Position numbers and translations under genes: made by a program. From assembly GCA_044350705.1 (NCBI GenBank), contig JBILHA010000001.1, positions 310,242 through 353,430 of the forward strand: 43,189 nt of DNA, in the 5' to 3' direction. This DNA comes from Candidatus Kapaibacterium sp. Its GTDB lineage: Bacteria; Patescibacteriota; Patescibacteriia; UBA9934. Under the pieces are notes generated by a model that searched no databases, was not told the DNA's origin, and saw nothing but the letters and a program-made list of their open reading frames with translations. This document shows positions 8,891 through 27,801 of the stretch, piece by piece; the first letter of the stretch is position 1, and each line of letters begins with the position of its first letter.

Positions 8891-9514
8891 ATGCCAAGGA
8901 AGAAAGGGATTTCAAAACAAGAACAACTTGATGAAATTGCCCAGGCACTTGCTGCTTCTTCTTGTCCCTTGCGTGTTACGGCGACACGAGCCGTACCAGG
9001 AGAGGGGAATCCCGATGCAGATATTTTGTTTATTGGAGAAGCTCCAGGAAAAAATGAAGACCTTACCGGGAGGCCGTTTATCGGCGCAGCTGGGAAGGTG
9101 CTTTCCGGTCTTTTGGAGTCCATTCGGATGACTCGAGAAGAGGTGTTCATTACGAGTATTGAAAAGTTTCGTCCCCCTCAAAATCGTGATCCTAAACCCG
9201 AGGAGGTTGAGGCATGTTTCCCATTTCTAGAAAGACAAATTGAAGTGATACGTCCAAAGATTATTGTGCCTATGGGGCGTCATGCTTTGCGATGGATTTT
9301 AGAATGGGAGAAGGGCGAAAGGATTGCGGGGAATATTGCGATGGAAACCTTTCATGGCAAGGCGATTCGAGGAAAGAAGGGTTACCTCTATTTTCCTATC
9401 CATCACCCTGCTGCACTTCTCTATAGTCGGAGTTTAACTCCGATGGTTGAAAAAGAATTCGCAATGATTCCAAAGCTGCTGAAGAAAGAGAGGAGCTCGT
9501 CACCCCGGGCTTGA
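8891..9514 (+). CDS. Uracil-DNA glycosylase, family 4-like
   Basis: GEGNPDADILFIGEAPG, ED..GRPF.G.AG, RPP.NRDP, HPAALL. Confidence 0.9.
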   Translation: MPRKKGISKQEQLDEIAQALAASSCPLRVTATRAVPGEGNPDADILFIGEAPGKNEDLTGRPFIGAAGKVLSGLLESIRMTREEVFITSIEKFRPPQNRDPKPEEVEACFPFLERQIEVIRPKIIVPMGRHALRWILEWEKGERIAGNIAMETFHGKAIRGKKGYLYFPIHHPAALLYSRSLTPMVEKEFAMIPKLLKKERSSSPRA

Positions 9515-9526
9515 CCCGGGATCCAG
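9499..9526. repeat. REP/RPE-like short palindromic element
   Basis: GTCACCCCGGGCTTGACCCGGGATCCAG; related copy at 22050; supplies the UDG stop codon. Confidence 0.6.
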
Positions 9527-9589
9527 TGTCGTCGCTGTCGGTTTATAGGAGATTTGAAGTGGAAGGAGGGTAAAAATTTATATCAAATC

Positions 9590-9746
9590 GATGTAAAGCT
9601 GACTTTACATCTGTAAATTCATGTAAAAAATAGGTAAGTACCTCTTCTTTTTATTCCTTTTTATCACGTAAGTATACTTTACGTTTTGCATTTCACGACG
9701 CAATAAACATTTGGATTTTTGAAAGCCATGTAAAGCATACTTACGT
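9590..9746. repeat. Three related GTAA(A)G..CTT(T)AC palindromes
   Basis: GATGTAAAG-ctga-CTTTACATC (9590), ACGTAAGTATACTTTACGT (9666), ATGTAAAGCATACTTACGT (9728). Confidence 0.55.
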
Positions 9747-10022
9747 CAGTTTTTTACTCAAAAAAAGAAAAGGAATCCCATCCTTTCTCAGGATGAAAAG
9801 TTTCTCATTTCACTTTTCCTTAACCCGAAATCGGCAAGAGTTTTAAGAAGGTTGGTGATTGGCCGGCAGCTATTAAATGTTGCGAAGAGATTTTTTCAGG
9901 ATCGTTTTTTGCGGCAAAAGAAGATCCTTTTGACTTGCAAAATGTACGCATCTTGGATGTCTTGTGGAGTGGGACGGAAAAGGAGAGGACATGGGACTGT
10001 CCCTGTCATGGAAGCCGTTTTA

Positions 10023-10595
10023 CTAAAGAAGGTGAGGCGTTGAATGGACCTGCTGAGGGAGAGAAGACGCGGCTTGTTGTGCGTTTGTGATCAGTATTTT
10101 TCGCGTGCGTTCTATCTCTTTTTCAGGAAGTAATTTTTCTGTAAGCCTGAGAAAGAGGGGTACTTTCGTTTCGATCATGAATTTTCTGTTTTCTTTTGAG
10201 AGGCCGTGACATTGCGTGAGATTGTCTGCGATATCTGCGATTTTAATGTGCCATGCATCTTTATCTCCCGCTTCCGTGAGTTTTGCCATCATAAATAGCC
10301 ATCTTTCCGTGTTGTCTTCGATGTCCATGCGATGAGAGCAAAGTTCTATGAGGTCAATGATGCGGTCGGTGCATCCCAGGATGCGAAGTTCTTCAAAGCT
10401 TACCTCTCCATCTTCAATAATGTCATGAAGGAGGCCGGCAATGGCAACCTCCCGGTTTTCCGAATCGCTTGTTTCTTTGATGAGATCTCGTACGCGAAAA
10501 GAATGGCGATAATTCGGTTCGTCCGGCAATCCTTTCCGGTGTCCGGTAATTTTTTGTGTAACGAGTTGTTCGGCCTTCTTTTCCAATTCTTCCAT
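10023..10595 (-). CDS. HD-domain hydrolase, small alarmone hydrolase (Mesh1/SpoT-HD)-like
   Basis: HRKG..EPNYRH..RV, AGLLHDIIED, IKIADIADNL; no synthetase domain. Confidence 0.75.
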   Translation of the reverse strand: MEELEKKAEQLVTQKITGHRKGLPDEPNYRHSFRVRDLIKETSDSENREVAIAGLLHDIIEDGEVSFEELRILGCTDRIIDLIELCSHRMDIEDNTERWLFMMAKLTEAGDKDAWHIKIADIADNLTQCHGLSKENRKFMIETKVPLFLRLTEKLLPEKEIERTRKILITNAQQAASSLPQQVHSTPHLL

Positions 10596-10632
10596 ATAAG
10601 GCTTATTTTACTTTATTTTATGGTGTTTTTTA

Positions 10633-10660
10633 TTGACAAATTGAGGCAAGAGTGTATGCT
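10633..10660 (+). promoter_or_regulatory. Sigma70-type promoter of GC-rich cassette 1
   Basis: TTGACA-16-TATGCT; 7-bp inverted repeat AGGCAAG/CTTGCCT overlaps the -10. Confidence 0.6.
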
Positions 10661-10701
10661 TGCCTTCCGCTGCACTACTTTTGTCCTTCCATGAGGTGGA
10701 A

Positions 10702-11121
10702 ATGGCGCTGGTCGTATTGCCCGCGATGGGCATTGATCTCGGCTTCTGCGGGGCCGATGATCACATTCTGGTGGGCGTCGGGGGAAATCGCTTCGGCGTG
10801 TACCCTGAGTACTACACCAACGAGGAAGGTCTGTTCTTTAAGCTGGAGTTGTGGTGCAGTGAGGAGGATCTCTTCGCTGCCATCGACGCTCTGGTTGAGG
10901 ATCGTGACCCCGCTTCGCCCGATGTTCTGGAGGTCCTCCTCCGGGGCTGGAAGGGGGCTCGTGCGAAGGACGAGCTCAAGGGCGATCTCACTCTCCGCCA
11001 GGAGACGAAAAATCGTCTCGTGCGGGAGCTTCGTAGTTTCCGCAACGGTCCGTGGAGCGCCTATGTTGCTCAGCAGACCGATCATTTTCGTGGCCTTCGC
11101 AGGCCCGATCCCGTCAGTTAG
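10702..11121 (+). CDS. GC-rich orphan hypothetical protein (139 aa)
   Basis: GAGGTG SD before ATG 10702, promoter upstream, tandem hairpins downstream, G/C-ending codons in this frame. Confidence 0.7.
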   Translation: MALVVLPAMGIDLGFCGADDHILVGVGGNRFGVYPEYYTNEEGLFFKLELWCSEEDLFAAIDALVEDRDPASPDVLEVLLRGWKGARAKDELKGDLTLRQETKNRLVRELRSFRNGPWSAYVAQQTDHFRGLRRPDPVS

Positions 11122-11192
11122 CTCTTCTGAGCACTGACGGGGGGGGGTTCTGACCGGTGTCCCTCGTGGGGTGCCGGTCATTCTGTTTTTTT
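11110..11192 (+). terminator. Tandem hairpins and terminator of cassette 1
   Basis: CCCGTCAGT..GCTC-ttct-GAGC-ACTGACGGG, then TGACCGGTGTCCC-tcgt-GGGGTGCCGGTCA (G-U pairs only on +) followed by a T-rich tract. Confidence 0.7.
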
Positions 11193-11230
11193 CGTCTGTC
11201 TGATTTTTGTCACGAGCCGGGATGACTTTC

Positions 11231-12232
11231 TTATTCTGTAATTTCTCTGCCGAGAGTATATGCGGAGTAAAAGCTGTCTGGAAGATCTTTTACCTGTTTT
11301 GTCCAATCTGTTCCGTAGAGTTTTTTTGCGGTTTCTTCGCTTGCTATGCCTTGGAGAGTTCCATTTTCGGCAATGTGATACACCGTGGGTACGCTCTGGA
11401 GTTTGATCAAATAAGACCCAGGTTTTGGCATGACCGCGCCCTTCAAGGGAATGCGGCCCATTTCTTCTTTACTGATAAACTTTACTGATGAGAAGTTGGG
11501 GTACCAAGAGTAGAATGCATCTTCATTCTGGAAGACATATCTTCCCCCATCTTGTCCGCAGTAATAGACGGTTGAGAATTCTTCCGTACGAATGAGGCTG
11601 TTTGATGTGCAGAACGCTTCTTTTTCAGCAAGAGGAATTTCCTGGTTTTCATTAATCGTGAGTGAAGTTTGTGCGGCTTCGAGCTTTGGCGCAGAGAGAT
11701 AATTTGCGTATGCAGCCACGAGAGATTCGTACGGGTTGATCGGCGTACTTCCGTTATAAATTTGGAAGTGGAGGTGCGGCGCCGTGTTTTCGGCATTTCC
11801 GCTGTCGCCTACCCATCCGAGAAGCTGACCTTCGTTTACGTAAACTCCCTCTTTTACGCCAGGAGCATAGGCATTTTTTGCACCACCACGGCCATCATCA
11901 GTACCGGGGGTATCATTATTTAGGTGGATATAGTGATACGTTTTTTTGTCGTCTCCTGCGATCGTAATCATGTATCCGTAACTTGGCTCATTCATGGGAG
12001 CGAAGGTGATTACGCCGCTTGCTGCAGCGACCACGGGGGTCATTTTATCTGCCATGATATCTGTTGCGTGGTGCGTGCGTCCACCTCCGCGTGTGTGAAG
12101 AAAATCGTTGATAAACGTTACTTCACCTTGCACTGGGAAGGTGATGTCGCTTGTTGCTGCGTGAGTGATAAAAGGGAATGAGAACATTCCGACGCACAGG
12201 AATGTGAAAAATGAAAAAATGTAAAAATGCAT
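11231..12232 (-). CDS. Secreted M23 family peptidase with C-terminal surface domain
   Basis: Signal peptide ending THAA; HHATD, YIHL, VGDSGNA..TAPHLHF; C-terminal VYYCGQDGGRYVFQNEDAFYSWY domain. Confidence 0.88.
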   Translation of the reverse strand: MHFYIFSFFTFLCVGMFSFPFITHAATSDITFPVQGEVTFINDFLHTRGGGRTHHATDIMADKMTPVVAAASGVITFAPMNEPSYGYMITIAGDDKKTYHYIHLNNDTPGTDDGRGGAKNAYAPGVKEGVYVNEGQLLGWVGDSGNAENTAPHLHFQIYNGSTPINPYESLVAAYANYLSAPKLEAAQTSLTINENQEIPLAEKEAFCTSNSLIRTEEFSTVYYCGQDGGRYVFQNEDAFYSWYPNFSSVKFISKEEMGRIPLKGAVMPKPGSYLIKLQSVPTVYHIAENGTLQGIASEETAKKLYGTDWTKQVKDLPDSFYSAYTLGREITE

Positions 12233-12261
12233 AAAGCCCAAATAGCGTAGCAGATTTTCAA

Positions 12262-12291
12262 AAAAATCCCCAGTTTTCGTTGGGGATTTTT
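12262..12291 (-). terminator. Terminator after cruF-like gene
   Basis: AAAAATCCCCA...TGGGGATTTTT, followed by a T-run on the minus strand. Confidence 0.65.
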
Positions 12292-12292
12292 G

Positions 12293-13021
12293 CTAGTGGA
12301 AAAAAGGCCGCGCAAAGAATGGGAGCAATATTAATCCTATAAAGATGGGGAGAACGAAGAGAAAACCTCCGGCTGCTCCTGTCCAAAATCCTACAAGCAC
12401 CATTCCTCCCATGAGGAGCAATGAGATGTCCGTTTTTGGTTTCCAGATATATGCGCAGATGGTGTGCATGATGAGACCGCTCAGCACCCATCCGAAAAAA
12501 TTTTGTAAAGGAACGCCGTAATAAACCCCTGGCTTTTCCCATGACCAATACTTTAGTGCGGTAAGTGTTGGGTCGAGTACGAGGTCGATGCTTACAAGAA
12601 TGATGGTCGCGAGGATAATGCGGCTAAAGATGCTGTTTGTATATTTTTCTCCAAGCGCATGGGCTATAAAGAGTAGTGGAGGAAATGCGATACTTACGGT
12701 CCAGGGTACGAGATTTCCTATTTTTTCCCCAAGCGCATCTCCATAGGTGAATGAACTGTAAGGAAATCCTGTCGCGACCCCAATGCTTTCTATGATGAGC
12801 GCACTTATTCCGATTGCGGCCATGAGCAAGAAGGCACGAAAGGTTCCTTGGGCTTTTTGCAGTGCGAAAAATGTGCCTGCCGCAATAGCTCCTAAGCTCA
12901 TGATGGCGTAGAGAGGATGCTGCGTTGTTTGTGCTAGTTGGGGAAAGAAAAAACCTGCTATCATGCTTCCAAACACGATCATCCCACCTATGAACATGTC
13001 TTTTTCTCGGATTTTACGCAT
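12293..13021 (-). CDS. cruF: Carotenoid hydratase CruF (DUF422/bisanhydrobacterioruberin hydratase-like); start uncertain (13021, 12997 or 12982)
   Basis: IESIGVATGFPYSSFTYGDALG.K...VPW, DLVLDP......WSW...G.YYGVPLQNFFGW; multi-TM; crt context. Confidence 0.85.
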   Translation of the reverse strand: MRKIREKDMFIGGMIVFGSMIAGFFFPQLAQTTQHPLYAIMSLGAIAAGTFFALQKAQGTFRAFLLMAAIGISALIIESIGVATGFPYSSFTYGDALGEKIGNLVPWTVSIAFPPLLFIAHALGEKYTNSIFSRIILATIILVSIDLVLDPTLTALKYWSWEKPGVYYGVPLQNFFGWVLSGLIMHTICAYIWKPKTDISLLLMGGMVLVGFWTGAAGGFLFVLPIFIGLILLPFFARPFFH

Positions 13022-13841
13022 AAGTCGTCCTCGCTTTTGGATATATATTTTTGGTCCCTACCTTTTAGGCGCTTGTGCTGCGTTACTCGCAGCTGACACA
13101 TGGTCATTTTCTTGGCAAACGCTTCTTTTTGCAACTTACTTTCTTTTTTCCGCCAATCTTCTTATTTACGGCGTGAATGATATTTTTGATTATGAGACTG
13201 ATCGGTTAAATCCCAAGAAGCAAGGATATGAGGAGCTTGTGCGGCCGGAAGATCGTAAGCCACTTTGGTTTGCGATTGCCGTTTCCCACATACCCTATCT
13301 GCCCGCGCTCGTTTTCTTAGATTCTCGTGCCCTGCTCATGCTCGCGGGTTTTTGGTTCTTTTCTCTTGGATATTCTCTTCCACCGCTTCGTGCAAAAGCG
13401 CGACCATTTTTTGATTCTTTTTTTAATGTTCTTTACGTATTTCCTGCTTTTTTTTCGTATGTTCTTGGCGGGGGAGGAGCATTGTCCTGGCAGGTTGTTT
13501 TCGCGGCATGCTGTTGGGTTATGGCGATGCACGCATTTTCCGCAGTCCCCGATATCTCCGCGGATACGCATGCGGGCGTGCATACGATTGCTACGGTTCT
13601 TGGAAAAGGGCGCACGATTTTCTTATGCGGGTTTCTCTATGCTCTTTGCGCTTTTTTTGCGCTCCCCTCGCTCGAGTGGCTTGCCATTTATTTGGGGCTT
13701 GCGTACGTCCTCCTTATGATTTTTGCTTACTCTTCTTCCGATATCATGCGAATATATCGTCTATTTCCATGGGTGAATACGTTTGCAGGATTTTCCCTCT
13801 TTCTTTTCTTTGCTTTACAGCTGGTGCAGCGGCTCGGCTGA
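12990..13841 (+). CDS. lyeJ: UbiA-family prenyltransferase, lycopene elongase LyeJ/CrtEb-like
   Basis: SRPRFW.Y..GP, NLLIYGVNDIFDYETDRLNPKK, YSLPPLRAKARPFFDS..N.LY, MAMHAFSAVPDI..D; sits between crtI and cruF. Confidence 0.82.
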   Translation: MNMSFSRILRISRPRFWIYIFGPYLLGACAALLAADTWSFSWQTLLFATYFLFSANLLIYGVNDIFDYETDRLNPKKQGYEELVRPEDRKPLWFAIAVSHIPYLPALVFLDSRALLMLAGFWFFSLGYSLPPLRAKARPFFDSFFNVLYVFPAFFSYVLGGGGALSWQVVFAACCWVMAMHAFSAVPDISADTHAGVHTIATVLGKGRTIFLCGFLYALCAFFALPSLEWLAIYLGLAYVLLMIFAYSSSDIMRIYRLFPWVNTFAGFSLFLFFALQLVQRLG

Positions 13842-15329
13842 GGTGTCTCCGGTTAGTCGCTTATAGACGAGCTGAGCGCTAATGAGGCACATGGGCATGC
13901 CAATTCCTGGGTTGGTATTTCCCCCTACGTAAAAGAGGTTTTTTACTTTTTTGCTTTGTGTATCTGGTCGGAAGATCGCGGTTTGCCAGAGTGTGTGCGC
14001 GAGCCCAAGTGCGGTTCCTTGGTATGCGTTATACATGTCACGGAAGTCGCTTACGCAAAATGATTTTTCGTAGACGATGCGTTCGCGAAGATTGGGAATG
14101 TGCATTTCTTTTTCCATGGTAGCGAGCACTTGTTCCCGTGCCTTTTCCCGTTCTTTTGCGCCATCTTTAAGTCCTGCGGCAATAGGGACGAGCACGAACA
14201 AGTTTTCATGATGTTCAGGTGCTACGCTTGGATCGGTGACACTTGGCGCACATACGTAAAAAGAAGGATCTGTTGGCCATTGCGGGGTGTCGAAGATTTC
14301 TCCAAAGTTCTTTTTCCAATCTTGCGAGAAGAGAAGATTGTGATGGGTAAGGGAAGGGATGCGATCTTTTACCCCAAGATAGAGAATGAATGCGGAGGGT
14401 GCGAGTGTTCGTTTTTCCCAGTAGTCTTCACTGAATGAGCGTTCTTCTTTTGCGAGGAGTTTTTGTTCGGTGTGTGCGATGTCGGCGTTTGATACAACGA
14501 TATCCGCTTCAATAAATGATCCGTCTGTAAGCTCGACACCTATCGCTTCTTTATTTTTTGTACGAATGCGTGATGCAGTGGTTTGTGTTTTGCATACGAC
14601 ACCATGCTTTTCGCAGATGCGCACGAGTGTTTTGATGATTTCGTAAATACCACCTTGCGGGTAATACACACCCATGTTGAAATCGATGTGTGACATGATG
14701 CTGTAAAGTGCGGGAGTGTTGTAGGGGGAGCTTCCGAGAAATACCAAAGGATATTGCATGATTTTTTGTACTTCACTTGTTGCGAAATACTTTTTTACAT
14801 AGGTATCCATGGTTGAAAAAACGGAGAGTTTTATTCCGTCGGTCATGATTTCTCTTGTAAAGAAATCAAGAAGAGAATTGTAATTTTTATAAATAAAACG
14901 TGCTTTTGCAATGTCGTATTGCATTTTTGCACGTGAAAGATATTTTTCTAATTTTTCGCTCGATCCTGGTTCGAGTTTTTCGAATGTTTCTTTGTCTTTT
15001 GTGAGATCGGAATAGATGTCGACTTCTTTTCCGGTGTTTTTAAAGAAGATGCGATATGAAGGGGAGAGCTTTTTCAATGCAAGATGCTCCTCGACGCGTT
15101 CTCCGAGAAGTGAAAAATATTGTTCGAAAATATCGGGCATGAGATACCACGATGGTCCCATGTCAAAACGAAAACCTTCCGCTTCAAAGATGTTCGCGCG
15201 GCCTCCGAGATGTTCGTTCTTTTCGAGAACGGTTACATGAGCACCTTTTTTTGCAAGAAGCGCTGCGGTGCCTAAACCTCCGAATCCCGATCCAATGATG
15301 ACTACTTTTTTGTTTTTGATGTTGTCCAT
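13815..15329 (-). CDS. crtI: Phytoene desaturase family (CrtI; CrtD activity not excluded)
   Basis: GSGFGGL, LEKN...GGRA, FRFDMGPSWYLMPD, YYPQGG, GTALGLAHTL.QTA.FRP, PGIGMPMCLISA. Confidence 0.92.
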   Translation of the reverse strand: MDNIKNKKVVIIGSGFGGLGTAALLAKKGAHVTVLEKNEHLGGRANIFEAEGFRFDMGPSWYLMPDIFEQYFSLLGERVEEHLALKKLSPSYRIFFKNTGKEVDIYSDLTKDKETFEKLEPGSSEKLEKYLSRAKMQYDIAKARFIYKNYNSLLDFFTREIMTDGIKLSVFSTMDTYVKKYFATSEVQKIMQYPLVFLGSSPYNTPALYSIMSHIDFNMGVYYPQGGIYEIIKTLVRICEKHGVVCKTQTTASRIRTKNKEAIGVELTDGSFIEADIVVSNADIAHTEQKLLAKEERSFSEDYWEKRTLAPSAFILYLGVKDRIPSLTHHNLLFSQDWKKNFGEIFDTPQWPTDPSFYVCAPSVTDPSVAPEHHENLFVLVPIAAGLKDGAKEREKAREQVLATMEKEMHIPNLRERIVYEKSFCVSDFRDMYNAYQGTALGLAHTLWQTAIFRPDTQSKKVKNLFYVGGNTNPGIGMPMCLISAQLVYKRLTGDTSAEPLHQL

Positions 15330-16174
15330 AGTGAAATGAGGATGCGAATTTTTTCGGTGAATGAAGTTTTTGCTCGGGATGTGAAGATGTTGTAGTTTTG
15401 CTGTTCTATTTTTCGTAAAATTTCTTGATAGAGTCTGCTTGCGAGAAGGACCGCAAAGCGCCCACGTTTTTCAAGAAGTGCGATGCCGAGCGTGGCTTCT
15501 TGATACAGTGCATCGGCGCGTGCGATCTCTTCTTTGAGAAGTGCGGTCATGTTTTCTGACATTCGCTGATGAGCAATGTCGGACTCGGTAACGTGATGCT
15601 TGCGCAGATCTTCTAAAGGAAGATAAATGCGACCCCGTGTTTCAAAATCTTCCTTGATATCACGAAGAAAATTTGTGAGTTGCATGGCGTATCCGAGCTT
15701 CTTTGCGTATTCGAGCGCTGTCGGATCTTTGTATCCGATGACATATGTCATCATGAGGCCAACGACTGCCGCTGATCCATACATATACTGTTCAAGATCC
15801 GCATAGGTTTCGTATCGGCACACGCTGAGGTCTTGTTCCATGGCGTGTAAAAAATCTTCAGCGTATGTTTTTGGAATGTGATACGTATGAAAAACCGCGC
15901 TTGTTGCGCGAAGTACGGGATGCGATGAAGTTTGCTTTTCGTACGCGTCATCCCATTCTTTTATGAATGCATTCAGCGCCTTTTGCTTTTCTTGATGCGA
16001 TTGATTTGGTGATGAATCTACAATTTCGTCGGGAACTCTAAAAAATGCGTAGAGGACGTGCGTGGCATCACGGAGATGTTTTGGAAAAAGACGCGTGGCG
16101 AATGCATAACTTTTTCCATGATATTCATGGATTTTTTTGCATATGAGCACGTCTTCGGGTTGAAGCGTCTTCAT
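15302..16174 (-). CDS. crtB: Phytoene synthase
   Basis: HGKSYAFAT, LYAFFRVPDEIVD, MEQDL, YMYGSAAVVGLM, AMQLTNFLRDIKED, GRIYLP; ATGA overlap with crtE stop. Confidence 0.93.
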   Translation of the reverse strand: MKTLQPEDVLICKKIHEYHGKSYAFATRLFPKHLRDATHVLYAFFRVPDEIVDSSPNQSHQEKQKALNAFIKEWDDAYEKQTSSHPVLRATSAVFHTYHIPKTYAEDFLHAMEQDLSVCRYETYADLEQYMYGSAAVVGLMMTYVIGYKDPTALEYAKKLGYAMQLTNFLRDIKEDFETRGRIYLPLEDLRKHHVTESDIAHQRMSENMTALLKEEIARADALYQEATLGIALLEKRGRFAVLLASRLYQEILRKIEQQNYNIFTSRAKTSFTEKIRILISLWTTSKTKK

Positions 16175-17196
16175 ACGCGTCGGGATTCGAGGAGGGCGAT
16201 GAGCGTTTCCCATTCCTGTTTTATATCGTCATGAAAGGGCGCGTGCATAAGCGCTGTTCGAGCCTCGGCAAAAGCGTGATTGATTTCGCGCGTTGCGAAA
16301 TGGAGCGCTCCTGAATTTTGCAAGACTTTTCGGAGCGTTTCCTTTTCTTCGTTGGAGAGTTTTTTCCCTAGGCTCGTTCGAAGTATTTTTTGCTGTTCGG
16401 CGTTCCCTTTTTGAAAGACGTAGTGCGTGATAAGCGTCTGTTCGCCTTGTTCAATGTCACGCATGCTGTCTTTTTTAATTTCTTCTTCTTGCGCGGTAAC
16501 ATCAAAGAAATCATCTTGCATCTGAAAGGCTCTTCCGAGGGCAATGCCGATATCCTTTGCTGAAGCGAGTTCGTTTTCTGTTGCTCCTGCGATGTGCATG
16601 CCTAATTGCAGTGGGCGTACGAAGGTGTAGCTGCCGGTTTTCAAGTCGATTTTTTTTAGAATAGTCTCTTGCGTTACCGTTTCTTGTTTCATGCAGCCTA
16701 CGTCGATCATTTGCCCGGTCACTACTTCGTCAATCATGCTAAAAAAAGTTTCGTGGCATGCGATGGGAGCTTCTCTGAGGAGTTCCATTGACCAAGCGTA
16801 TACAAGATCGCCGACAAGAAGCGCTTGAGAAAGTGCGAGATGATCGCGTTCTTTTTCTTTCTGAAACTGTTCTTTGGCTTTTGTTTCAATCGTTGGAATT
16901 CCTCGACGTGTTTTTGCTTTGTCGATGATGTCGTCGTGAATAAGTGCAAAGCCATGAAAAAGCTCGATTGCTATGCCGAGTTTTGTTGCCATGGAGGAAT
17001 CTCCCTTTGTTGTTTGTGCGCCCAGAGAAATGATGTATGGACGTACCCGTTTTCCCCCGGAAAGGAGAGGAAGGAGATGGTCTATGAGTTCTTCTACGAT
17101 GGGTTCAGGAAATGTGTTTTTATACCGCATTATCCTTTCCTGGAGATGAGCGTTGAATGTTGGGCTAAATTGCGAGATGAAATGCGCGAGGTCCAT
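16171..17196 (-). CDS. crtE: Polyprenyl (geranylgeranyl) diphosphate synthase
   Basis: GGKRVRP, ELFHGFALIHDDIID...RRG, GQMID, KTGSYTF, FQMQDD. Confidence 0.88.
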   Translation of the reverse strand: MDLAHFISQFSPTFNAHLQERIMRYKNTFPEPIVEELIDHLLPLLSGGKRVRPYIISLGAQTTKGDSSMATKLGIAIELFHGFALIHDDIIDKAKTRRGIPTIETKAKEQFQKEKERDHLALSQALLVGDLVYAWSMELLREAPIACHETFFSMIDEVVTGQMIDVGCMKQETVTQETILKKIDLKTGSYTFVRPLQLGMHIAGATENELASAKDIGIALGRAFQMQDDFFDVTAQEEEIKKDSMRDIEQGEQTLITHYVFQKGNAEQQKILRTSLGKKLSNEEKETLRKVLQNSGALHFATREINHAFAEARTALMHAPFHDDIKQEWETLIALLESRRV

Positions 17197-17242
17197 ACTG
17201 CCCTAATAAGCGGCTTTAGTGTATCACGTTTGCCCTATTTCA

Positions 17243-17710
17243 TCAGGAATTGAGCAGGTATGCAACAAGAAGCATGAGTGCGCTCCACCAGCCGATATCC
17301 GAGATAATGAGACTTATTGCAATGCGCTTTTGCCAGGAGGGAGGAAGTATTTTGTGTGATTTCCCTTCTTTTTCTCGTTTGATCAGATACGGACTTACTG
17401 AGCAAGAGAGAAAACACCCGTTGAGAAGAAGAATACTCGCAATGCATGCGTGCATGAGGGGTATTCCTGAAAGCGTTTCGTTTCGATAGAAAAGAAGCCC
17501 TCCGAAGATTGCGAGGCAGATACCTGTCCAAATCATGGGTTTGGTGACTTTGTGCGTGCGCGTGGTAGCTTCCGTCCAATATTCCGATTTCATTCCGAGG
17601 AAACCATGAATGTCGATGACCGTTACCGCGCCAAGACCAATGACAAATCCTGCGAGCAAAAGAAAGAGCCCGAAGAAGTCGATGGGGTTAATTGAGAGTC
17701 CAAAAAGCAT
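17243..17710 (-). CDS. Four-TM membrane hypothetical protein
   Basis: Hydrophobic segments, GFVIGLGAVTVID.HG motif; co-directional between tspO and crtE; start moved to ATG 17710. Confidence 0.7.
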   Translation of the reverse strand: MLFGLSINPIDFFGLFLLLAGFVIGLGAVTVIDIHGFLGMKSEYWTEATTRTHKVTKPMIWTGICLAIFGGLLFYRNETLSGIPLMHACIASILLLNGCFLSCSVSPYLIKREKEGKSHKILPPSWQKRIAISLIISDIGWWSALMLLVAYLLNS

Positions 17711-18191
17711 AATTGAGATAGGTTGCGAATGATACCCAGAGAAGGTATGGCACAAGGAGCCATGCGGCCGTTTTTGAAATACGTGAAAAAAGTATGATGG
17801 TTGCTACGATTGCAAACCAAAGTACGATGATCTCACCAAGTGCCGCGGCGATATTTTGTGCGCCAAAGAAAAGAATTGACCAGAGGGCATTGAGGATGAG
17901 TTGTGTGAAGAATATCGTCAGGGTGATTTTGCCGTGTGTGGTATGTCGGGCCTTTTCCCATACGAGAAATGCCGCGTATCCCATGAGTGTGTAGAGCGTT
18001 ATCCATACAGGTCCAAAGAGCCATGATGGGGGAGTGATTGCTGGTTGCTCGAGGGTAACATACCAATTTTTTACCGAGTTAGCGGTGAACAACGATCCAA
18101 TGATTCCTGCGCTTTGTGAGAGGGCGATAAACAATGCGATGGGTTTCCATGCTTGTTTTCGTGCGTGCTGTTTTCTCGGAGCATTTCGCAT
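17688..18191 (-). CDS. tspO: TspO/MBR (CrtK) tryptophan-rich sensory protein
   Basis: WYVTL.QP..TPPSWLFGPVWITLY, QLILNALWSILFFG, LLVPYLLWVSFATYLN. Confidence 0.93.
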   Translation of the reverse strand: MRNAPRKQHARKQAWKPIALFIALSQSAGIIGSLFTANSVKNWYVTLEQPAITPPSWLFGPVWITLYTLMGYAAFLVWEKARHTTHGKITLTIFFTQLILNALWSILFFGAQNIAAALGEIIVLWFAIVATIILFSRISKTAAWLLVPYLLWVSFATYLNYAFWTLN

Positions 18192-18216
18192 ATGCCCTTA
18201 GTGTACCTTGCTCAAA

Positions 18217-19188
18217 CTATTTCAGCACTGCCATAGCCATGAGCGTGTCGCGATTTGCAAAACCTTCTCTTCGTTCTGATGAAAGAAGATCATTGTCAGC
18301 TATGGTAGAGAATGCGCTTATCTCAATATGTTCTGCAAGTACCCCCTTCTTTCTTAACAGTGCAGCAATTGCTTGTCCGTTGTCGAACAATATTTTTCCT
18401 CTTTCTTTATGCGTTTTAAAGAGCAATTTTTCCTCTTCTGCACTAAAGCGCGTTCCTTCTGCACCCATGAGGGATGATTTATCTCCTGCAGAGAGTTCAA
18501 AATTGTCTCCATCTGCATAGGGTCCGATCACGACGCGAAGCGCAGAAGGATTACTTCCAAAAGCTTTTTCCATTGCTTCTACGCCTTTGGTGGGCATCTC
18601 GAGCGCTGTTCCTCTCCATCCTATGTGGAATATTCCAATAGCCCTGTTTTCCGGATCGTAGATGAAGACGGGTGCACAATCTGCGGCAGCAGCGAGAAGG
18701 GGGATGTGTTTAAGGTTGGTGATGAGTCCATCCGCTTTTATTTCCACGAGTTCTTTTTTTGCTTGGGCAAGATAGGTTTCGTCGATGACTTTGATTTCAG
18801 TTCCGTGGACAAGGCGCGTTTTGATCATCTGGCGTGGATCTGCTTCAGGGTCGAGCTGCTCAAGGGTACGTGCGAGCTGGAGACCGGCGCTTACTTTTTT
18901 TCCGCGAAATTCTTCTATGGTCATTTTTCCTTCTAGCGCTTGTTCGAGTTCTTCTCGATCGTCAATCGCACGACGGGCATCTCCGGTGATACGCAAACGA
19001 GGCGTATGCCCTGCACCTTCTTTGCGTATCTCGGTGAGTTTTGTGGTAGTACCCACTGCTACTTCATTCCTAAATGCTTCAAGGCTTTTTGGTCGCCATA
19101 CTCCGTTTTCGATCCGTTGTCCTTCGCGTTCTATGGGCTCGTGTCTCATTCGTTGTGCTTCTGGGTTTCCTGTGCCTGGCTGTTTCAT
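18217..19188 (-). CDS. YfiH/PgeF (polyphenol oxidase/purine nucleoside phosphorylase) family protein with N-terminal extension
   Basis: VHG, ADGLIT, ADCAPV, HIGWRG, IGP, S.RR; start moved to ATG 19188. Confidence 0.78.
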   Translation of the reverse strand: MKQPGTGNPEAQRMRHEPIEREGQRIENGVWRPKSLEAFRNEVAVGTTTKLTEIRKEGAGHTPRLRITGDARRAIDDREELEQALEGKMTIEEFRGKKVSAGLQLARTLEQLDPEADPRQMIKTRLVHGTEIKVIDETYLAQAKKELVEIKADGLITNLKHIPLLAAAADCAPVFIYDPENRAIGIFHIGWRGTALEMPTKGVEAMEKAFGSNPSALRVVIGPYADGDNFELSAGDKSSLMGAEGTRFSAEEEKLLFKTHKERGKILFDNGQAIAALLRKKGVLAEHIEISAFSTIADNDLLSSERREGFANRDTLMAMAVLK

Positions 19189-19260
19189 AAAAAAAAGAAA
19201 AAAGTTCCCGGGTATGAAAACTTTTTTCTTACTCTTTCGCAAGATTTTTATCCGCTTATT

Positions 19261-20181
19261 TTATAGTGTAGATACTTTTGCTGGAGTTTCTGCAAGTTCT
19301 ATCGCTCCCTTCACGATAAGTTTCGCCACATCAATTCCTGTTGCTTTTTCGAGTTCGGTAAATCCCGGGTTGGCATTGATTTCAATGATCAGTGGACCGT
19401 TTTTGCTGCGGAGAATGTCGACACCTGCAAGATCGAGTCCAATGGTTTTGGTTGCCCGAAGTGCGAGTTCTTCCTCTTCTTTGGAGAGCTCCACGGGGAA
19501 TCCTTGTCCTCCAATGGATGCGTTAGCTCGTACGTCACCTGGTCGTGCTCTGCGTTCCATGGCCGCTGCAACTTTCCCGTTGAGTACGAGGACACGTATG
19601 TCGCATCGGTTTGCTTCCGCAATAAACTTTTCGATGATCAGGGGATTTCCGTCTCGAACATTTAAGTACTCTACGATAGGGCAAAATGTTTCAGTGTCAT
19701 GAGCAAAGAATACCCCCTTTCCTTGAGTACCAAAGGGAACTTTGATAATCACAGGGAATGAAATGCGCTTTGCTACGTCTACGGCATGCTTGGGGCTACG
19801 CACAATGGCCCATGGCGGCATGGGAATTCCTGCTCTTTTGAAGGCGAGATGTTGTGCAAGTTTTTCTTTAGAGATGAGTATTGCTGAAGCGTTCCCATTG
19901 AGAATAGGAGTCTGTAACTCTTGGAGTGCTTCGAGGGTCGCTCCGTGAGGCATGGGTTCTTCAATGAAGTTGGGTCGTGCAATCCATACGTCAGGTTTTT
20001 CCTCAAGCAAGATGCCTTCGTAGAATACTTTCAATCCCTCTTCGGTATGTTCGAAGGTAAAAAATGGTTCAAAAAAAATCTTTGCTGTATGGCCAAGATC
20101 AGTTGCGGTTTTCAAGAGTTCTTTTGAGGCGCTTCCAAAGTCCCGCTCAGCTTCGGAAAAAACGAGAATACCGATGTTCAT
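19261..20181 (-). CDS. RimK-family ATP-grasp ligase
   Basis: FPVIIK...GTQGKGV, EKFI.EA...DIRVLV, RANASIGG, AGVDILRS..GPLIIEINANPGF; leaderless-type start (TACTAT 6 nt before ATG). Confidence 0.88.
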   Translation of the reverse strand: MNIGILVFSEAERDFGSASKELLKTATDLGHTAKIFFEPFFTFEHTEEGLKVFYEGILLEEKPDVWIARPNFIEEPMPHGATLEALQELQTPILNGNASAILISKEKLAQHLAFKRAGIPMPPWAIVRSPKHAVDVAKRISFPVIIKVPFGTQGKGVFFAHDTETFCPIVEYLNVRDGNPLIIEKFIAEANRCDIRVLVLNGKVAAAMERRARPGDVRANASIGGQGFPVELSKEEEELALRATKTIGLDLAGVDILRSKNGPLIIEINANPGFTELEKATGIDVAKLIVKGAIELAETPAKVSTL

Positions 20182-20227
20182 GGGGCTATAGTAGAGAATT
20201 TTGTAAAAAAGGGAAGAGAGAAAGAAA

Positions 20228-21937
20228 TTATTGCATTTTTTCTTGTACACTTTCGTACAACCATTTGGCAATTTTGAGGTCATCGTAGGAATATTCTCCT
20301 TGAAAGAATTCGAAAATCGGACGGAGGATTTTTGGTCCGAGCTTTTTCATGATGGGATGGACTTCGGTCGTAAGGATGATGTGAGATTTTTGGATTTCCG
20401 CAAAGACATTTTCCGGAAGTTTTTTGAGCTCCTGGATTTCTATCAAGTGTTCAATGATCGTTCCTACGGTTCGTTCACGTGCCTTTGCAACTTCATGTAC
20501 ATTTTTCTTTTCGAGAATAAGTTCAAGAGTGGATTCCCACTTTGGCCCCTTCTTTTTCTTGGGAGGAGCCGAGAAGTAGACGGAGAATGCATCGAGGGTT
20601 TCTTTAGGAAGTGTTTCTTTTTTTCCTCCGCATGCTTTGATGAAGTTTTCTGTTTCTGCCAGGAGTTGTTCTTCTGATCTGTGGGCAAGGGCCTGCTCTG
20701 CTTCGAGTGAGAGCTCCCTGAACATTTCGTCTTTTGTAAGAACGGTAGGGTCGATTTCTAGGGCTCGGGTGTTTAATCCGCCAAGATACAGGCCGGAGAG
20801 CGATCGTACGCGTGAGAGCGCAACATACCCTTGTCCATAGGCAAATGCGCTTCCCAGGTCGATGAATGCGCCGTCGAGGGACATGCCTTGGCTTTTGTGC
20901 ACGGTAATGGCCCATGCAAGACGAAGCGGAATTTGTCGTACTGCAGCGAGCGCCGATCCATCCACGTCAATGCTCCACGTTTCTGGTTCTGTGCAAATGA
21001 CGCGACCACTTTTGAGTTGTACGACAGGATATTTTTTTTCTTTGTCAAAATCTACGACCTCTCCTAGTGATCCATTTACATATCCCTCGGAAGGATTGTT
21101 GCGTGTGAACATGACTCGTGCCCCAATTTTGAGAGTAAGCTTTTCGGGAGAGAGACAGCCGCGAATAATTTGTTCGATGAGTTTAGGATTTCCATGTGTT
21201 GACATGGAATAAGATTGTTCGTTTCCTTTGAGCGCGCGTAACCGATCGCTGTTCATGCGATCAACATCTGCGTTATGCGAATAGAGTTTTGTGATGTCGG
21301 TATCTTCTGCAGGGCGCTTTCTGTTGTGGAGATGAGAGAGGTGATCTTCGGTCAAGTTTGCGCGACGCATTGCGGAAAGAATATCCAGGAAGGTTTTATC
21401 TTCCTGTCGATGTTGTTCGGAAAGGTAGCAAACCGTAAAGCCTGCTGCGCGCCAGGCGTTTGATTCAAAAGCAAAATAGACTGGCGGTTCATCTGGACGG
21501 GAAATAGGAGGAAGCTGGAAGAAATCTCCTACGAAGACGACCTGAATGCCCCCAAATGGGAGATCGACATCTTTCATCACTCGGCAGATGAGATCGACGG
21601 AATCAAGCATCGCGGCATCGAGCATGGAGATTTCATCGATAATAAGCACCGATGTGTTTTTGATGCGACGTTTGAGATTTGCATTTTTTTCCAGATCTTT
21701 GCAGTCACGGCGAGTAACATGCTTGCGAATACCAAGGCCGCTCCAAGAATGAATAGTCATTCCTCCGATATGTGTAGCGGCAATGCCGGTTGATGCGGTG
21801 AGTGCAGGAGTAATTCCTCGAGAATATAAAAATTTTACGTACTCGCGTACGGTATAACTTTTTCCTGCACCTGGTTCTCCGGTGAGAAAAACATTTACGC
21901 CAGTTTTGAGGATTTTGAGCGCATCCGCTTGGGTCAT
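20228..21937 (-). CDS. PIF1-family SF1B DNA helicase with C-terminal HTH
   Basis: TGEPGAGKS, ASTGIAA, IDEISM, PFGGIQ...GDFFQLPP, QIPLRLAWAITVHKSQGMSL, GQGYVALSR. Confidence 0.92.
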   Translation of the reverse strand: MTQADALKILKTGVNVFLTGEPGAGKSYTVREYVKFLYSRGITPALTASTGIAATHIGGMTIHSWSGLGIRKHVTRRDCKDLEKNANLKRRIKNTSVLIIDEISMLDAAMLDSVDLICRVMKDVDLPFGGIQVVFVGDFFQLPPISRPDEPPVYFAFESNAWRAAGFTVCYLSEQHRQEDKTFLDILSAMRRANLTEDHLSHLHNRKRPAEDTDITKLYSHNADVDRMNSDRLRALKGNEQSYSMSTHGNPKLIEQIIRGCLSPEKLTLKIGARVMFTRNNPSEGYVNGSLGEVVDFDKEKKYPVVQLKSGRVICTEPETWSIDVDGSALAAVRQIPLRLAWAITVHKSQGMSLDGAFIDLGSAFAYGQGYVALSRVRSLSGLYLGGLNTRALEIDPTVLTKDEMFRELSLEAEQALAHRSEEQLLAETENFIKACGGKKETLPKETLDAFSVYFSAPPKKKKGPKWESTLELILEKKNVHEVAKARERTVGTIIEHLIEIQELKKLPENVFAEIQKSHIILTTEVHPIMKKLGPKILRPIFEFFQGEYSYDDLKIAKWLYESVQEKMQ

Positions 21938-22001
21938 AAGCGCATATATTCTACGTTGTTTAGGATCCTAAATAAAGGAATGTATCACCAGTTTTCCTTG
22001 T

Positions 22002-22078
22002 GTCATTCTGGGGGAGATTCCAGTCAGACCGAAGGATCTATGGGTTTTGGTCATTCCGGGCTCCTATCCGGAATCCAG
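22002..22078. repeat. Two adjacent REP/RPE-like elements
   Basis: GTCATTCTG...CGAAGGATCT (22002-22039) and GTCATTCCGGGCTCCTATCCGGAATCCAG (22050-22078); the second aligns with 9499-9526. Confidence 0.55.
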
Positions 22079-27754: not shown

Positions 27755-27801
27755 AAGATGTGAGAATAGTATGACAAAAGGTTTTTTGTTGGGAAGGGTT
27801 A

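Follow-up and report, generated by a model that had tools for sequence, protein, structure and literature searches.

The window, a stretch of 43,189 nucleotides from the genome of a lake bacterium, contains a gene cluster that probably encodes a pathway, self-contained and maintained by selection, to an acyclic carotenoid of extended chain length in a freshwater Uhrbacteria-like CPR bacterium, which would import the C5 units. A tiny, host-dependent organism would in this case carry a complete and uninterrupted set of genes for a long red membrane pigment of the bacterioruberin type and yet have no known route to the C5 units from which such pigments are made. Our reading draws directly on gene content, family assignments by profile scores, synteny, phylogeny, genome-wide absences and the integrity of the contig. 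The genome comprises 910 kb in 2 contigs and is 100% complete. Seven ORFs were recovered at 12293-18191, each at the coordinates reported in the first-pass annotation, and their families could be matched except for the 4-TM protein, which matched no Pfam or NCBIfam family in profile searches:

12293..13021, minus strand: cruF-like carotenoid 1,2-hydratase, 242 aa (PF04240, Caroten_synth/CruF)
12963..13841, plus strand: lyeJ, LyeJ-type UbiA prenyltransferase, putative lycopene elongase/hydratase (NF009516)
13815..15329, minus strand: CrtI-family desaturase, predicted bifunctional CrtID, 504 aa (NF058655)
15302..16213, minus strand: crtB, SQS_PSY-family head-to-head synthase, presumptive phytoene synthase, 303 aa (PF00494)
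16171..17196, minus strand: crtE, short-chain trans-prenyl diphosphate synthase, presumptive GGPP synthase, 341 aa (PF00348)
17243..17755, minus strand: conserved 4-TM membrane protein without assigned function (likely start 17710, giving 155 aa)
17688..18191, minus strand: tspO, tryptophan-rich sensory protein, 167 aa (PF03073)

The cruF and lyeJ genes are divergent, with cruF overlapping the 5' end of lyeJ. The start of lyeJ is probably at 12990, yielding a 283-aa form that is matched letter for letter in the Atlas, and that of cruF may lie a few codons further downstream. Sequence inspection showed the five pathway ORFs to be uninterrupted with their motifs present, including intact Asp-rich catalytic motifs in LyeJ, CrtE and CrtB. 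From these genes, presumably expressed, we infer the following activities and product: CrtE would form GGPP, two molecules of which would be coupled by CrtB to phytoene; the single CrtI-family enzyme would perform the four phytoene desaturations as well as the later 3,4-desaturations; the LyeJ-type UbiA protein would add a DMAPP-derived C5 unit to each psi-end, with 1,2-hydration; and CruF would hydrate the C5 units thus attached. The pathway would end in C45/C50 membrane pigments of the bisanhydrobacterioruberin to bacterioruberin type, which may serve a membrane or photoprotective role. Overall, our results confirm what the first-pass annotation had observed and support, in the direction it had taken, its interpretation of the cluster as a source of acyclic hydroxylated C45/C50 carotenoids.

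To place the cluster in context we collected 91 lyeJ loci, of which 80 were titled, including 18 of CPR size and 51 from Acidobacteriota. The arrangement cruF(-) lyeJ(+) crtID(-) crtB(-) recurs in CPR-size, Acidobacteriota and Abditibacteria loci. In CPR-size and Acidobacteriota loci respectively, crtID lies beside lyeJ in 16/18 and 49/51, cruF beside lyeJ in 8/18 and 47/51, crtB after crtID in 14/18 and 47/51, and crtE inside the cluster in 14/18 and 0/51. Within the phylum lyeJ is carried by 14 of 401 sampled genomes, and of the 31 small genomes with LyeJ only 15 also encode CruF, suggesting that the end products may differ between lineages. A tree of concatenated LyeJ, CrtID and CrtB (35 rows, 1097 columns) grouped this cluster with Patescibacteria/Uhrbacteria loci (98/96, then 96/99) and recovered Acidobacteriota as a separate clade (100/100), a placement that agrees with the RecA affinities of the genome. 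The cluster is kept over the Uhrbacteria-like clade at 50-66% identity, and its closest relatives are bacterial, namely other CPR, Abditibacteria and Acidobacteriota, rather than haloarchaeal or actinobacterial.

In profile searches the UbiA-family protein scored 251 bits against NF009516 (equivalog cut-off 205; the description of the model reads only 'prenyltransferase') and 17-21 bits against the MenA/UbiA models (17-29 bits with MqnP included). A grouping with MenA/UbiA, which the first-pass annotation had singled out as evidence against its reading, is disfavored by these scores; together with the cruF/lyeJ/crtD arrangement they set the protein apart as putatively not MenA/UbiA-like. In an alignment of 24 homologues its motifs NDIFDYETD and DISAD fall in invariant columns, and we know of no characterized member of the bacterial LyeJ clade found here. 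The PF04240 gene is present in a single copy in the whole genome, and its product, which at about 245 aa is unfused as in other CPR loci, matched that family with 146.5 bits (E 1.3e-42). It scored 132 bits against the TIGR03460 CruF model (cut-off 154.7) and was under all three NCBIfam CruF cut-offs (including 96 bits versus 300), while a gamma-carotene hydroxylase model matches it at 86 bits. This last match, the bare label of NF009516, the absence from the genome of an IDI for DMAPP, and the fact that CruF-family enzymes in other bacteria are 1,2-hydratases of C40 psi-ends would suit a purely C40 outcome, in which CrtID and CruF yield acyclic hydroxy-carotenoids of the rhodopin or 3,4-didehydrorhodopin type and the UbiA protein prenylates another substrate or merely hydrates. 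We consider this unlikely, as no other gene of the cluster is as constant as that for the UbiA protein, which is always situated between cruF and crtID, and the MenA, UbiA and MqnP models score far below NF009516. Moreover, in 47/91 loci cruF is either fused to an IPP isomerase gene or has one next to it, which fits a DMAPP-using reaction and ties the cluster to DMAPP supply. The IDI-1 fused to cruF in Acidobacteriota is genuine (NF002995, 210 bits versus 127), and a Saccharimonas locus has IPK and IDI directly adjoining crtID-cruF-lyeJ.

The desaturase exceeded the cut-off of NF058655, 'bifunctional phytoene desaturase/3,4-desaturase CrtID' (669 bits versus 640), and scored 528 bits against TIGR02734. 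It is the one CrtI-family gene genome-wide, as had been noted for the window, and the profile score is consistent with the earlier proposal that it may be bifunctional. The available text of one study describes knock-outs demonstrating bifunctional CrtI/CrtD activity in Haloarcula japonica (PMC11946383). The lack of a cyclase noted in the window likewise holds for the genome, where a search that covered the CrtY type, as distinct from the heterodimeric CrtYcd/CrtYef type, returned nothing over cut-off. CrtB matched PF00494 (SQS_PSY) with 251.8 bits and was under every NCBIfam equivalog cut-off (HpnD 204 versus 278.6 bits, HpnC 178, CrtB models 146-173). CrtE, the only polyprenyl_synt protein encoded in the whole genome, matched PF00348 (polyprenyl synthase) with 182.5 bits, was also under every equivalog cut-off, and had best NCBIfam matches that are not GGPP synthase equivalogs. 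It contains the motifs DDIID and DDFFD, with a bulky residue five positions before the former that we take to fit short-chain C20 enzymes. Gene context and such motif rules suggest the C40 backbone and the GGPP chain length. The higher scores of the SQS_PSY protein against HpnD and HpnC than against the CrtB models, together with the top matches of CrtE, could instead point to a C30 backbone, with CrtE producing FPP and a CrtM- or HpnD-like enzyme leading to elongated diapocarotenoids. This is quite improbable: the HpnD, HpnC and CrtB-model cut-offs are all unreached, HpnC/HpnE partners were not found in the cluster, and both the CrtID equivalog, a C40 desaturase, and the presumed C20 signature of CrtE argue against it.

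The precursors of the proposed C45/C50 pigment pose a separate question. Whole-genome searches recovered no HMG-CoA reductase, GHMP kinase, DXR or IspH, no IDI-2 or IPK, and no fatty-acid synthase (ketoacyl synthase), and the best IDI-1 match reached 26 bits against a cut-off of 105.8. The absence of IDI, MEP and MVA genes first noted in the window thus extends to the complete genome, and the IDI found with the cluster in 47/91 loci is missing here as well. In the sole IDI-like Nudix protein the aligned Cys and Glu positions are absent. Among 31 LyeJ-bearing small genomes, IspH, HMGR and GHMP kinase are all under cut-off in 27. As the genome has no known IPP/DMAPP route, the cell must obtain all ten C5 units of each molecule externally, most likely, we infer, by import from a host or neighbor, in keeping with the host supply suggested earlier. 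Were IPP and DMAPP unobtainable, the cluster would be an intact but inactive relic, a notion favored by the missing C5 route, IDI and IPK. However, the genome retains UppS, which also requires IPP, and hence IPP must be obtainable. Further, none of the five ORFs is disrupted and their motifs are preserved, the cluster is kept in the Uhrbacteria-like clade with a tree matching host affinity, and a strain variant with about 3.9% DNA divergence has a LyeJ identical at 278/283 positions (5 residues changed). Such a relic therefore has only a slim chance of being the correct explanation.

The CPR origin assumed in the first-pass annotation is borne out by the GTDB phylum of the genome, which is that of a genome titled Ca. 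Saccharibacteria, and by its RecA, whose organism-named relatives belong in 10/11 cases to the Patescibacteria group, Uhrbacteria or Magasanikbacteria, the eleventh being labelled 'bacterium'. The genome is thus that of a freshwater-lake Patescibacteria/CPR organism near Uhrbacteria. The cluster is located within a 509-kb contig that also bears a 16S rRNA gene; colinearity over the cluster borders is seen in contigs from two other studies, one of 44.6 kb (spanning both borders) and one of 10.4 kb, and two further runs contain 100%-identical pieces. The recurrence of cluster and context in independent lake assemblies indicates that the contig, whose integrity had been flagged for checking, is not chimeric. 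None of the listed runs containing the cluster stretch was an RNA run. Mis-binned or chimeric non-CPR DNA, to which the nearest organism-named LyeJ homologues in protein searches (Acidobacteriota, Armatimonadota, Abditibacteria) and a cluster GC of 0.456, slightly under the genome mean of 0.486, might point, can be practically dismissed given these contigs, a GC within 1.1 SD, a tetranucleotide distance that ranks at the 91st percentile among 300 windows of the genome, the 14/401 phylum members with the gene and the position of the cluster among CPR loci in the tree.

Compared with known systems, the cluster shares with haloarchaea three enzyme families side by side, a desaturase over the bifunctional CrtI/CrtD cut-off and the expected chemistry, in which lycopene is extended to C50 by adding DMAPP twice and is also 3,4-desaturated and hydrated. 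It differs in that the CPR CruF is under the archaeal cut-offs (132 versus 154.7 and 96 versus 300 bits), lyeJ sits between cruF and crtID and is read from the other strand, and crtB and crtE are in the cluster. The CPR host also has no mevalonate pathway, unlike haloarchaea, which produce IPP themselves, and no rhodopsin gene was found in its whole genome. The haloarchaeal lyeJ and cruF are presumably c0506 and c0505. In the available text on Haloarcula japonica and Halobacterium salinarum, the bacterioruberin genes crtD (c0507), lyeJ and cruF are adjacent (PMC11946383). The pigment idea in lake Patescibacteria was already published in 2023: Haro-Moreno et al. described lyeJ, crtD and cruF in Lake Baikal Ca. 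Patescibacteria, likewise freshwater-lake CPR, with the same proposed product and a suggested membrane-adaptation role, as far as the available text goes (PMC9948471). There the genes are not clustered, cruF being distant from lyeJ/crtD or the genes falling on different reads, and bins are pangenomic, whereas here crtE-crtB-crtID-lyeJ-cruF are contiguous in a complete two-contig genome; no mention of crtE, crtB, a bifunctional desaturase or missing C5 supply was found in the available portion of that paper (PMC9948471). Pink Arthrobacter (A. agilis, A. bussei) offer a bacterial, non-archaeal precedent, the available texts describing bacterioruberin, the same gene set and a membrane-fluidity role at low temperature (PMC8709818, PMC9122864). 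These are free-living actinobacteria with their own isoprenoid and lipid synthesis, and no Actinobacteria occur among the 80 best loci, implying that the CPR genes are not closely related to theirs. Gene order and strands are shared with Acidobacteriota (Pyrinomonadaceae/Blastocatellia), Abditibacteria and Armatimonadaceae at 45-66% protein identity, but in Acidobacteriota CruF is mostly IDI-1-fused and crtE is elsewhere. We found no literature on the products of the cruF-lyeJ-crtID-crtB clusters of these three groups.

The Rhodobacter crt cluster contains crtK/tspO, and here too a TspO gene (PF03073, 174.8 bits) adjoins carotenoid genes on the same strand. Unlike in Rhodobacter, no photosynthesis genes were seen in the CPR organism, and the adjacency is unconserved: tspO adjoins lyeJ in 0/91 other loci, the 4-TM gene is missing from all 91, and TspO is common in the phylum with or without lyeJ (139/401 genomes). 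Hence, the tspO and 4-TM genes, which had been counted into the carotenoid cluster, are indeed present in it but probably form a separate module outside the pigment pathway. The Atlas model of the 4-TM protein has a pLDDT of 0.85, and its nearest clusters there are mostly from Minisyncoccota, with a DUF2269/DUF4149-like fold. It has 153 representatives at E<=1e-3, and one homologue, P0255, is a fusion of TspO with the 4-TM protein, which is probably paired with tspO rather than belonging to the pathway.

All genes that the first-pass annotation had named in this carotenoid cluster are present according to the ORF listing and the profile scans, in the following order:

12293-13021, minus strand: cruF-like gene (PF04240, 146.5 bits; cut-off 25)
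12963-13841, plus strand: lyeJ, UbiA-family prenyltransferase gene (NF009516 equivalog, 251 bits; cut-off 205)
13815-15329, minus strand: crtID, CrtI-family desaturase gene (NF058655, 669.2 bits; cut-off 640)
15302-16213, minus strand: crtB, SQS_PSY synthase gene (PF00494, 251.8 bits)
16171-17196, minus strand: crtE, trans-prenyl diphosphate synthase gene (PF00348, 182.5 bits)
17243-17755, minus strand: ORF with four trans-membrane segments (4-TM ORF), without a family
17688-18191, minus strand: tspO (174.8 bits)

With the exception of lyeJ, the genes are all minus-strand and belong to a long co-directional series that extends into unrelated genes for an M23 peptidase, PgeF, RimK and a Pif1-like helicase, and lyeJ overlaps both the 5' end of cruF and the 3' end of crtID. 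A consensus scan of window 11000-22500 recovered 7 promoter-like sites against 13.4 expected, and as the terminator-like sites that it recovered are mostly intragenic, it is silent on operon structure.

The most likely mechanism, which we regard as probable, is a five-enzyme route predicted from these families. CrtE would supply GGPP, which CrtB would convert to phytoene; the single CrtID would take this to lycopene and carry out the later 3,4-desaturations; LyeJ would make two C5 additions from DMAPP, together with hydration, and CruF would perform the final hydrations. The predicted products are C45/C50 bacterioruberin-type pigments, which would reside in a membrane of scavenged acyl lipids. 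For such pigments from Arthrobacter, a three-peak spectrum near 490 nm and an [M+H]+ of about 742 are reported (PMC11773480).

Residues 9-488 of CrtID align to positions 1-477 of the 478 in NF058655, the NCBIfam model for 'bifunctional phytoene desaturase/3,4-desaturase CrtID', and a family search of the genome returned this protein as the one CrtI-family match over the cut-off. A second match (17 bits) proved to be the FAD motif of a pyridine-nucleotide disulphide oxidoreductase. According to the available text of PMC11946383, knock-outs and complementation of Haloarcula japonica C0507 and D1086 revealed both CrtI and CrtD activity in each, a result that is probably the basis of the NF058655 model. 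Because the cut-off of this model is passed and the Haloarcula enzymes are bifunctional, a bifunctional CrtID, as had been suggested at the outset to account for a lone desaturase, is the best-supported reading of the sequence. CruF is, by its profile score, a PF04240 family member to which we assign no particular substrate; it stays below the cut-offs of three CruF equivalogs (TIGR03460, 132 vs 154.7 bits; NF041333, 96 vs 300; NF045693, 86 vs 400). The initial remark that the window lacks a cyclase holds for the whole genome, in which no CrtY-type cyclase is found over the cut-off.

The identity of the UbiA-family protein decides between this route and one ending in C40 products only, which we consider improbable. 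LyeJ has the UbiA fold (PF01040, 76 bits) with intact Asp-rich motifs NDIFDYETD and DISAD, and 24 homologues show no variation, or almost none, at N72, D73, D76, D80, D197 and D201. After NF009516 its next-best models are NF010119 (154 bits) and NF009608 (145 bits), and it scores just 17-29 bits against the MenA, UbiA, MqnP and ChlG models. The NF009516 description reads merely 'prenyltransferase', and its cut-off was passed in 1 of 14 control genomes. LyeJ has 1,351 homologues at E<=1e-3; among the matches listed, one is 98% and one 65% identical and the remainder 47-57%, the organism-named ones come from Pyrinomonadaceae (2), Blastocatellia, Armatimonadetes, Abditibacteriaceae and a 'bacterium', and the JGI names are 'lycopene elongase/hydratase' for 4 and '4-hydroxybenzoate polyprenyltransferase' for 14. 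The nearest named Atlas clusters, which we use as a lead only, are one that is mostly archaeal (Methanobacteriota), one of Actinomycetota and a 580-member, mostly Minisyncoccota cluster. In the window, as in most of the 80 titled loci of our survey, lyeJ sits between cruF and crtID.

Further evidence on this step comes from the recruitment of IPP isomerase (IDI). Most Acidobacteriota loci encode a longer CruF, of about 435 aa versus about 245, whose additional C-terminal domain is a true type-1 IPP isomerase (NF002995, 210 vs cut-off 127 bits; TIGR02150, 137 vs 105.8). This CruF-IDI fusion, of which we found no description in the literature, is seen at L027:6632-8032(-), where PF04240 covers residues 79-269 and NUDIX 312-437, and in 45 other Acidobacteriota-labelled loci. 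A tblastn search with IDI found it fused to cruF or adjoining in 47 of 91 loci, which indirectly points to a DMAPP-using UbiA step, the predicted acceptor being lycopene and the predicted donor of the C5 unit DMAPP. Repeated recruitment of an IPP-to-DMAPP isomerase fits C5 prenylation of lycopene better than quinone-type prenyltransfer. At L075:3697-8849, in a 0.6-Mb Ca. Saccharimonas genome (G416), an IPK (142.5 vs 120 bits), a 228-aa gene and an IDI-1 (216 vs 127 bits) abut crtID-cruF-lyeJ, and family searches of that genome found no HMG-CoA reductase (HMGR), GHMP kinase or IspH; the IPK and IDI-1 look like a pair that salvages C5 units for pigment synthesis. A heliorhodopsin gene lies about 13 kb off on the same contig.

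A C30 backbone, which would arise if CrtE made FPP and CrtB acted like CrtM or HpnD, has a slim chance of being correct. Both enzymes retain their signature motifs, DEIVD and DIKED in CrtB and the FARM DDIID and SARM DDFFD in CrtE. CrtB scores 146-173 bits against CrtB equivalog models with cut-offs of 480-550, and likewise falls below the HpnD cut-off (204 vs 278.6 bits). CrtE reaches no equivalog cut-off, its best GGPP model giving 140 bits against 500, and it has a Phe five residues ahead of the FARM, which we take to fit the rule for short-chain enzymes.

The NF009516 cut-off is passed in 14 of 401 sampled genomes of the phylum (the window's own included), over ten family codes. We also surveyed the best 80 loci from species-representative genomes, leaving out the window's own genome: by label, 51 are Acidobacteriota, 6 Abditibacteria or Armatimonadaceae, 14 CPR (9 Saccharibacteria, 2 Uhrbacteria, 2 Peribacteria and 1 Patescibacteria group), 4 'uncultured Gammaproteobacteria' and 5 unlabelled. 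The 4 loci labelled Gammaproteobacteria were counted with the 14 CPR loci as CPR-size (n=18) because their genomes are only 0.8-1.0 Mb. The clusters of these four (L014, L022, L045 and L085) are of CPR type and group with loci of Uhrbacteria or Peribacteria, and the genome labels look wrong. By tblastn with the window proteins the common layout is cruF(-) lyeJ(+) crtID(-) crtB(-). Several of the loci end at contig edges. In the counts, crtID adjoins lyeJ in 16/18 CPR-size and 49/51 Acidobacteriota loci, cruF adjoins it in 8/18 and 47/51, crtB follows in 14/18 and 47/51, and crtE lies within the cluster in 14/18 and 0/51, respectively. Overall, the Ca. Uhrbacteria locus L015 matches best, with identities of 66% for CrtID, 59% for CrtB, 52% for LyeJ, 45% for CruF and 36% for CrtE.

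We built a tree from concatenated LyeJ, CrtID and CrtB (35 rows, 1,097 columns), using only loci with all three genes at full length and thinning Acidobacteriota from 42 to 19. The window groups with one locus of the Patescibacteria group and one of Uhrbacteria (98/96); another Uhrbacteria locus and two CPR-size loci join next (96/99), and Acidobacteriota form a single clade (100/100) on the opposite side. As this tree agrees with the affinities of the organism, it argues for inheritance of the cluster within the lineage rather than recent capture. A single-gene LyeJ tree of 86 rows gives the broad picture only, its Abditibacteria rows L019, L039 and L081 being in the wrong frame. The phylum also holds a second, more distant LyeJ group (L002-L005 and L007-L009, from genomes G092, G173, G066, G170, G315, G090 and G015), 34-39% identical to the window LyeJ and scoring higher against NF009516 (268-297 bits), with layouts crtB/crtE-lyeJ or crtID-crtB-lyeJ; cruF is absent from 6 of these 7 genomes.

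That the cluster is an idle relic, making no pigment, seems about as unlikely as a C30 backbone. A strain variant with about 3.9% DNA divergence (201 differences in 12255-17424) has only 5 of 283 LyeJ residues changed, in a rough comparison that assumes the protein to come from a 10,389-base contig, whose length matches that listed for the homologue. Because the ORFs and motifs are intact, the Uhrbacteria-like clade keeps the cluster and LyeJ has changed so little at that divergence, selection on the cluster is indicated. No RNA run is among those listed for the stretch.

Mis-binning, by which the cluster would belong to some other organism, is scarcely credible given the following evidence on contig and host. 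The genome comprises 910,158 bp in two contigs, at 100% completeness and 1.1% contamination, and the window lies within a 509-kb contig on which the 16S rRNA gene is also found. Genome sizes in the 401-genome sample of the same GTDB phylum run from about 0.4 to 2.1 Mb, and a locus of one of these genomes (L006 of G345) shares 3,834 bases at 100% identity with a public 'uncultured Candidatus Saccharibacteria' sequence. Among the best 120 RecA relatives 11 are organism-named, 7 as 'Patescibacteria group', 2 as Ca. Uhrbacteria (77% and 80% identity), 1 as Ca. Magasanikbacteria and 1 as 'bacterium'. On its phylum company and RecA relatives the organism is thus placed in the CPR, near Uhrbacteria, and the CPR origin that the first-pass annotation had called probable is borne out, the reduced 910-kb genome included. 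The cluster is ordinary in composition for this genome: its tetranucleotide distance falls at the 91st percentile of 300 six-kb genome windows and its GC is 0.456 against 0.486 +/- 0.027.

The stretch or part of it is present in 20 public runs, with at least half of its words in 5, 2 of which may be its source; the organism labels, absent from 3 runs, all name lake, freshwater or aquatic metagenomes. The initial call for a check of contig integrity was answered by aligning four runs other than possible sources to window 9000-22500. A single 44.6-kb contig of one run follows the window colinearly from the M23 gene to the helicase, the whole cluster included, with 231 differences in 10687-17424 (about 96.6% identity), a 10.4-kb contig of another spans 12255-21439, and two further runs gave 100%-identical fragments in all 30 bins. 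Since contigs from other runs are colinear across the cluster, the contig is not chimeric. The only segment exchanged in the two variant strains is the 5' half of tspO (17894-18212), in whose place lies diverged sequence of similar length.

The source of the C5 units (IPP and DMAPP) was addressed by family searches over the complete 910,158-bp genome. These found no IDI-2, HMG-CoA reductase, IspH, DXR or IPK, and no GHMP kinase, a family that covers MVK, PMK, MDD and IspE. The sole IDI-1-like match is a 215-aa Nudix protein outside the window (G000 C1:463101-463523; L096:1345-1989(-)), for which IDI-1 is the best family. Its scores lie under the cut-offs (TIGR02150, 26 vs 105.8 bits; NF002995, 49 vs 127), and in alignment with true IDI it has THLGGH for NSCCGH and HHD for ENE, presumably the positions of the catalytic Cys and Glu of E. 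coli Idi. With the aligned Cys and Glu absent, it is unlikely to be the missing isomerase. The earlier statement that the window holds no IDI, MEP or MVA genes therefore extends genome-wide, the searches for IDI-1, IDI-2, HMGR, IspH, GHMP kinase and DXR giving no genuine match. Type-1 rhodopsin and heliorhodopsin searches of the genome also gave none, the named controls being equally silent and other CPR genomes matching. The genome keeps UppS (265 bits) and a PlsC-type acyltransferase (26 vs 23 bits), and a ketoacyl synthase family search found no fatty-acid synthase. CrtE is its only trans-prenyl synthase. A housekeeping role in which CrtE also primes UppS is weakened by the class sample: with the window CrtE as query, a homologue at E<=1e-10 occurs in just 11 of 61 genomes, so crtE is not a housekeeping gene of the class.

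Comparable gaps recur in 31 LyeJ-bearing small genomes, picked for lyeJ, 14 by genome and 17 through their loci, the latter without a completeness figure: IspH was found in 1/31, HMG-CoA reductase in 2/31, and GHMP kinase, IPK and rhodopsin over their cut-offs in 2/31, 1/31 and 1/31, respectively, with cruF in 15/31. IspH, HMGR and GHMP kinase over cut-off are all missing from 27 of the 31. Published surveys agree with the absence of C5 and fatty-acid synthesis genes. In the available text of PMC9166423, C5 synthesis in freshwater CPR is confined to Gracilibacteria, other classes having just the C10-C20 steps, and fatty-acid synthesis is encoded by none; in that of PMC6107057, the loss of MVA genes in Parcubacteria was mostly early, and CPR genomes often have IPK in synteny with IDI-1. 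Carotenoids go unmentioned in the available text of both.

CPR bacteria are thought to make almost no lipids themselves. A complete pathway apparently under selection in a 0.9-Mb genome would mean that some of them spend on a costly membrane isoprenoid. We tentatively propose, as a possibility still short of even chances, that a CPR lineage builds a C50 pigment wholly from imported C5 units, ten per molecule, with neither IDI nor IPK, and that this bilayer-spanning carotenoid tunes and protects the scavenged membrane of cells unable to make or tailor acyl chains. If so, IPP and DMAPP would cross the symbiont-host interface by an uptake route that has gone unrecognised, or the C5 units would have a non-canonical source there, and the cluster would report, visibly and by Raman signal, on the metabolites that flow from host to CPR cell. 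With no C5 route, IDI or IPK, the question of what CPR cells take from their hosts, and how, becomes testable: host-labelled C5 units would be expected in the coloured, Raman-active product. The same cluster type appears in at least ten families of the phylum; Acidobacteriota and Abditibacteria are a second home for it, with CruF fused there to IPP isomerase, and one Saccharimonas genome has the putative IPK-IDI salvage pair attached to it.

That Patescibacteria have bacterioruberin genes is, as a basic observation, already in print: according to the available text of Haro-Moreno et al. 2023 (PMC9948471), lyeJ, crtD and cruF are known from Lake Baikal Patescibacteria, with bacterioruberin proposed as a cold-membrane adaptation. 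In that text the genes are unclustered, whereas here five are contiguous in a complete genome. What our analysis adds is this contiguous cluster, a lone desaturase of the bifunctional type, the absence of a C5 supply across the genome, the distribution of the cluster type in the phylum and its IDI and IPK associations. A search that left most subscription journals outside found no other literature on CPR carotenoid genes beyond PMC9948471, and nothing else relevant to the product of the cluster in Acidobacteriota, Abditibacterium or CPR; two recent Patescibacteria reviews do not contain the words carotenoid, isoprenoid, mevalonate or undecaprenyl.

The cluster had first been listed with tspO and the 4-TM ORF; both genes are present, and their membership of the cluster is unsupported, as neither lies beside lyeJ in any of 91 loci (tblastn). 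The 4-TM ORF is real: a 155-aa form is in the Atlas (pLDDT 0.85), where its nearest clusters are mostly Minisyncoccota with a DUF2269/DUF4149-like fold, and a full HMMER search found 153 representative homologues at E<=1e-3. Many of these (P0242 and similar) are about 360 aa long, with a signal peptide and a roughly 200-aa N-terminal domain without a Pfam family, and the 4-TM domain has a strongly conserved His-containing motif. A fusion of TspO with the 4-TM domain (P0255) links the two genes to each other. TspO occurs in 139 of the 401 phylum genomes, in 8 of 14 LyeJ-positive ones (one copy with in-frame stops) and 131 of 387 others, a comparison from which, as related genomes are not independent, nothing is drawn. 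A pathway role for tspO is unsupported, given the 91 loci and its common presence in the phylum, and in our reading tspO and the 4-TM gene form a membrane module of their own that abuts the cluster by chance.

Elsewhere in the window, a LOOT RNA (Rfam RF03000; 41373-41502, plus strand; 52 bits vs gathering score 46.4) lies directly downstream of a 1088-aa ORF (38066-41332, plus strand) that has no Pfam family at E<=1e-5, and several ORFs near the latter (41563-42066, 42200-43189) are likewise without a family. At 27000-29000 GC rises to as much as 0.54, against about 0.45 nearby, over two ORFs, one for an AstE/AspA-like deacylase and one for a GNAT acetyltransferase, which overlap in different frames. 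A 137-aa SET-domain protein (2755-3168, plus strand; 93 bits), with a lysine-methyltransferase fold unusual in bacteria, adjoins an ABC-2 transporter operon.
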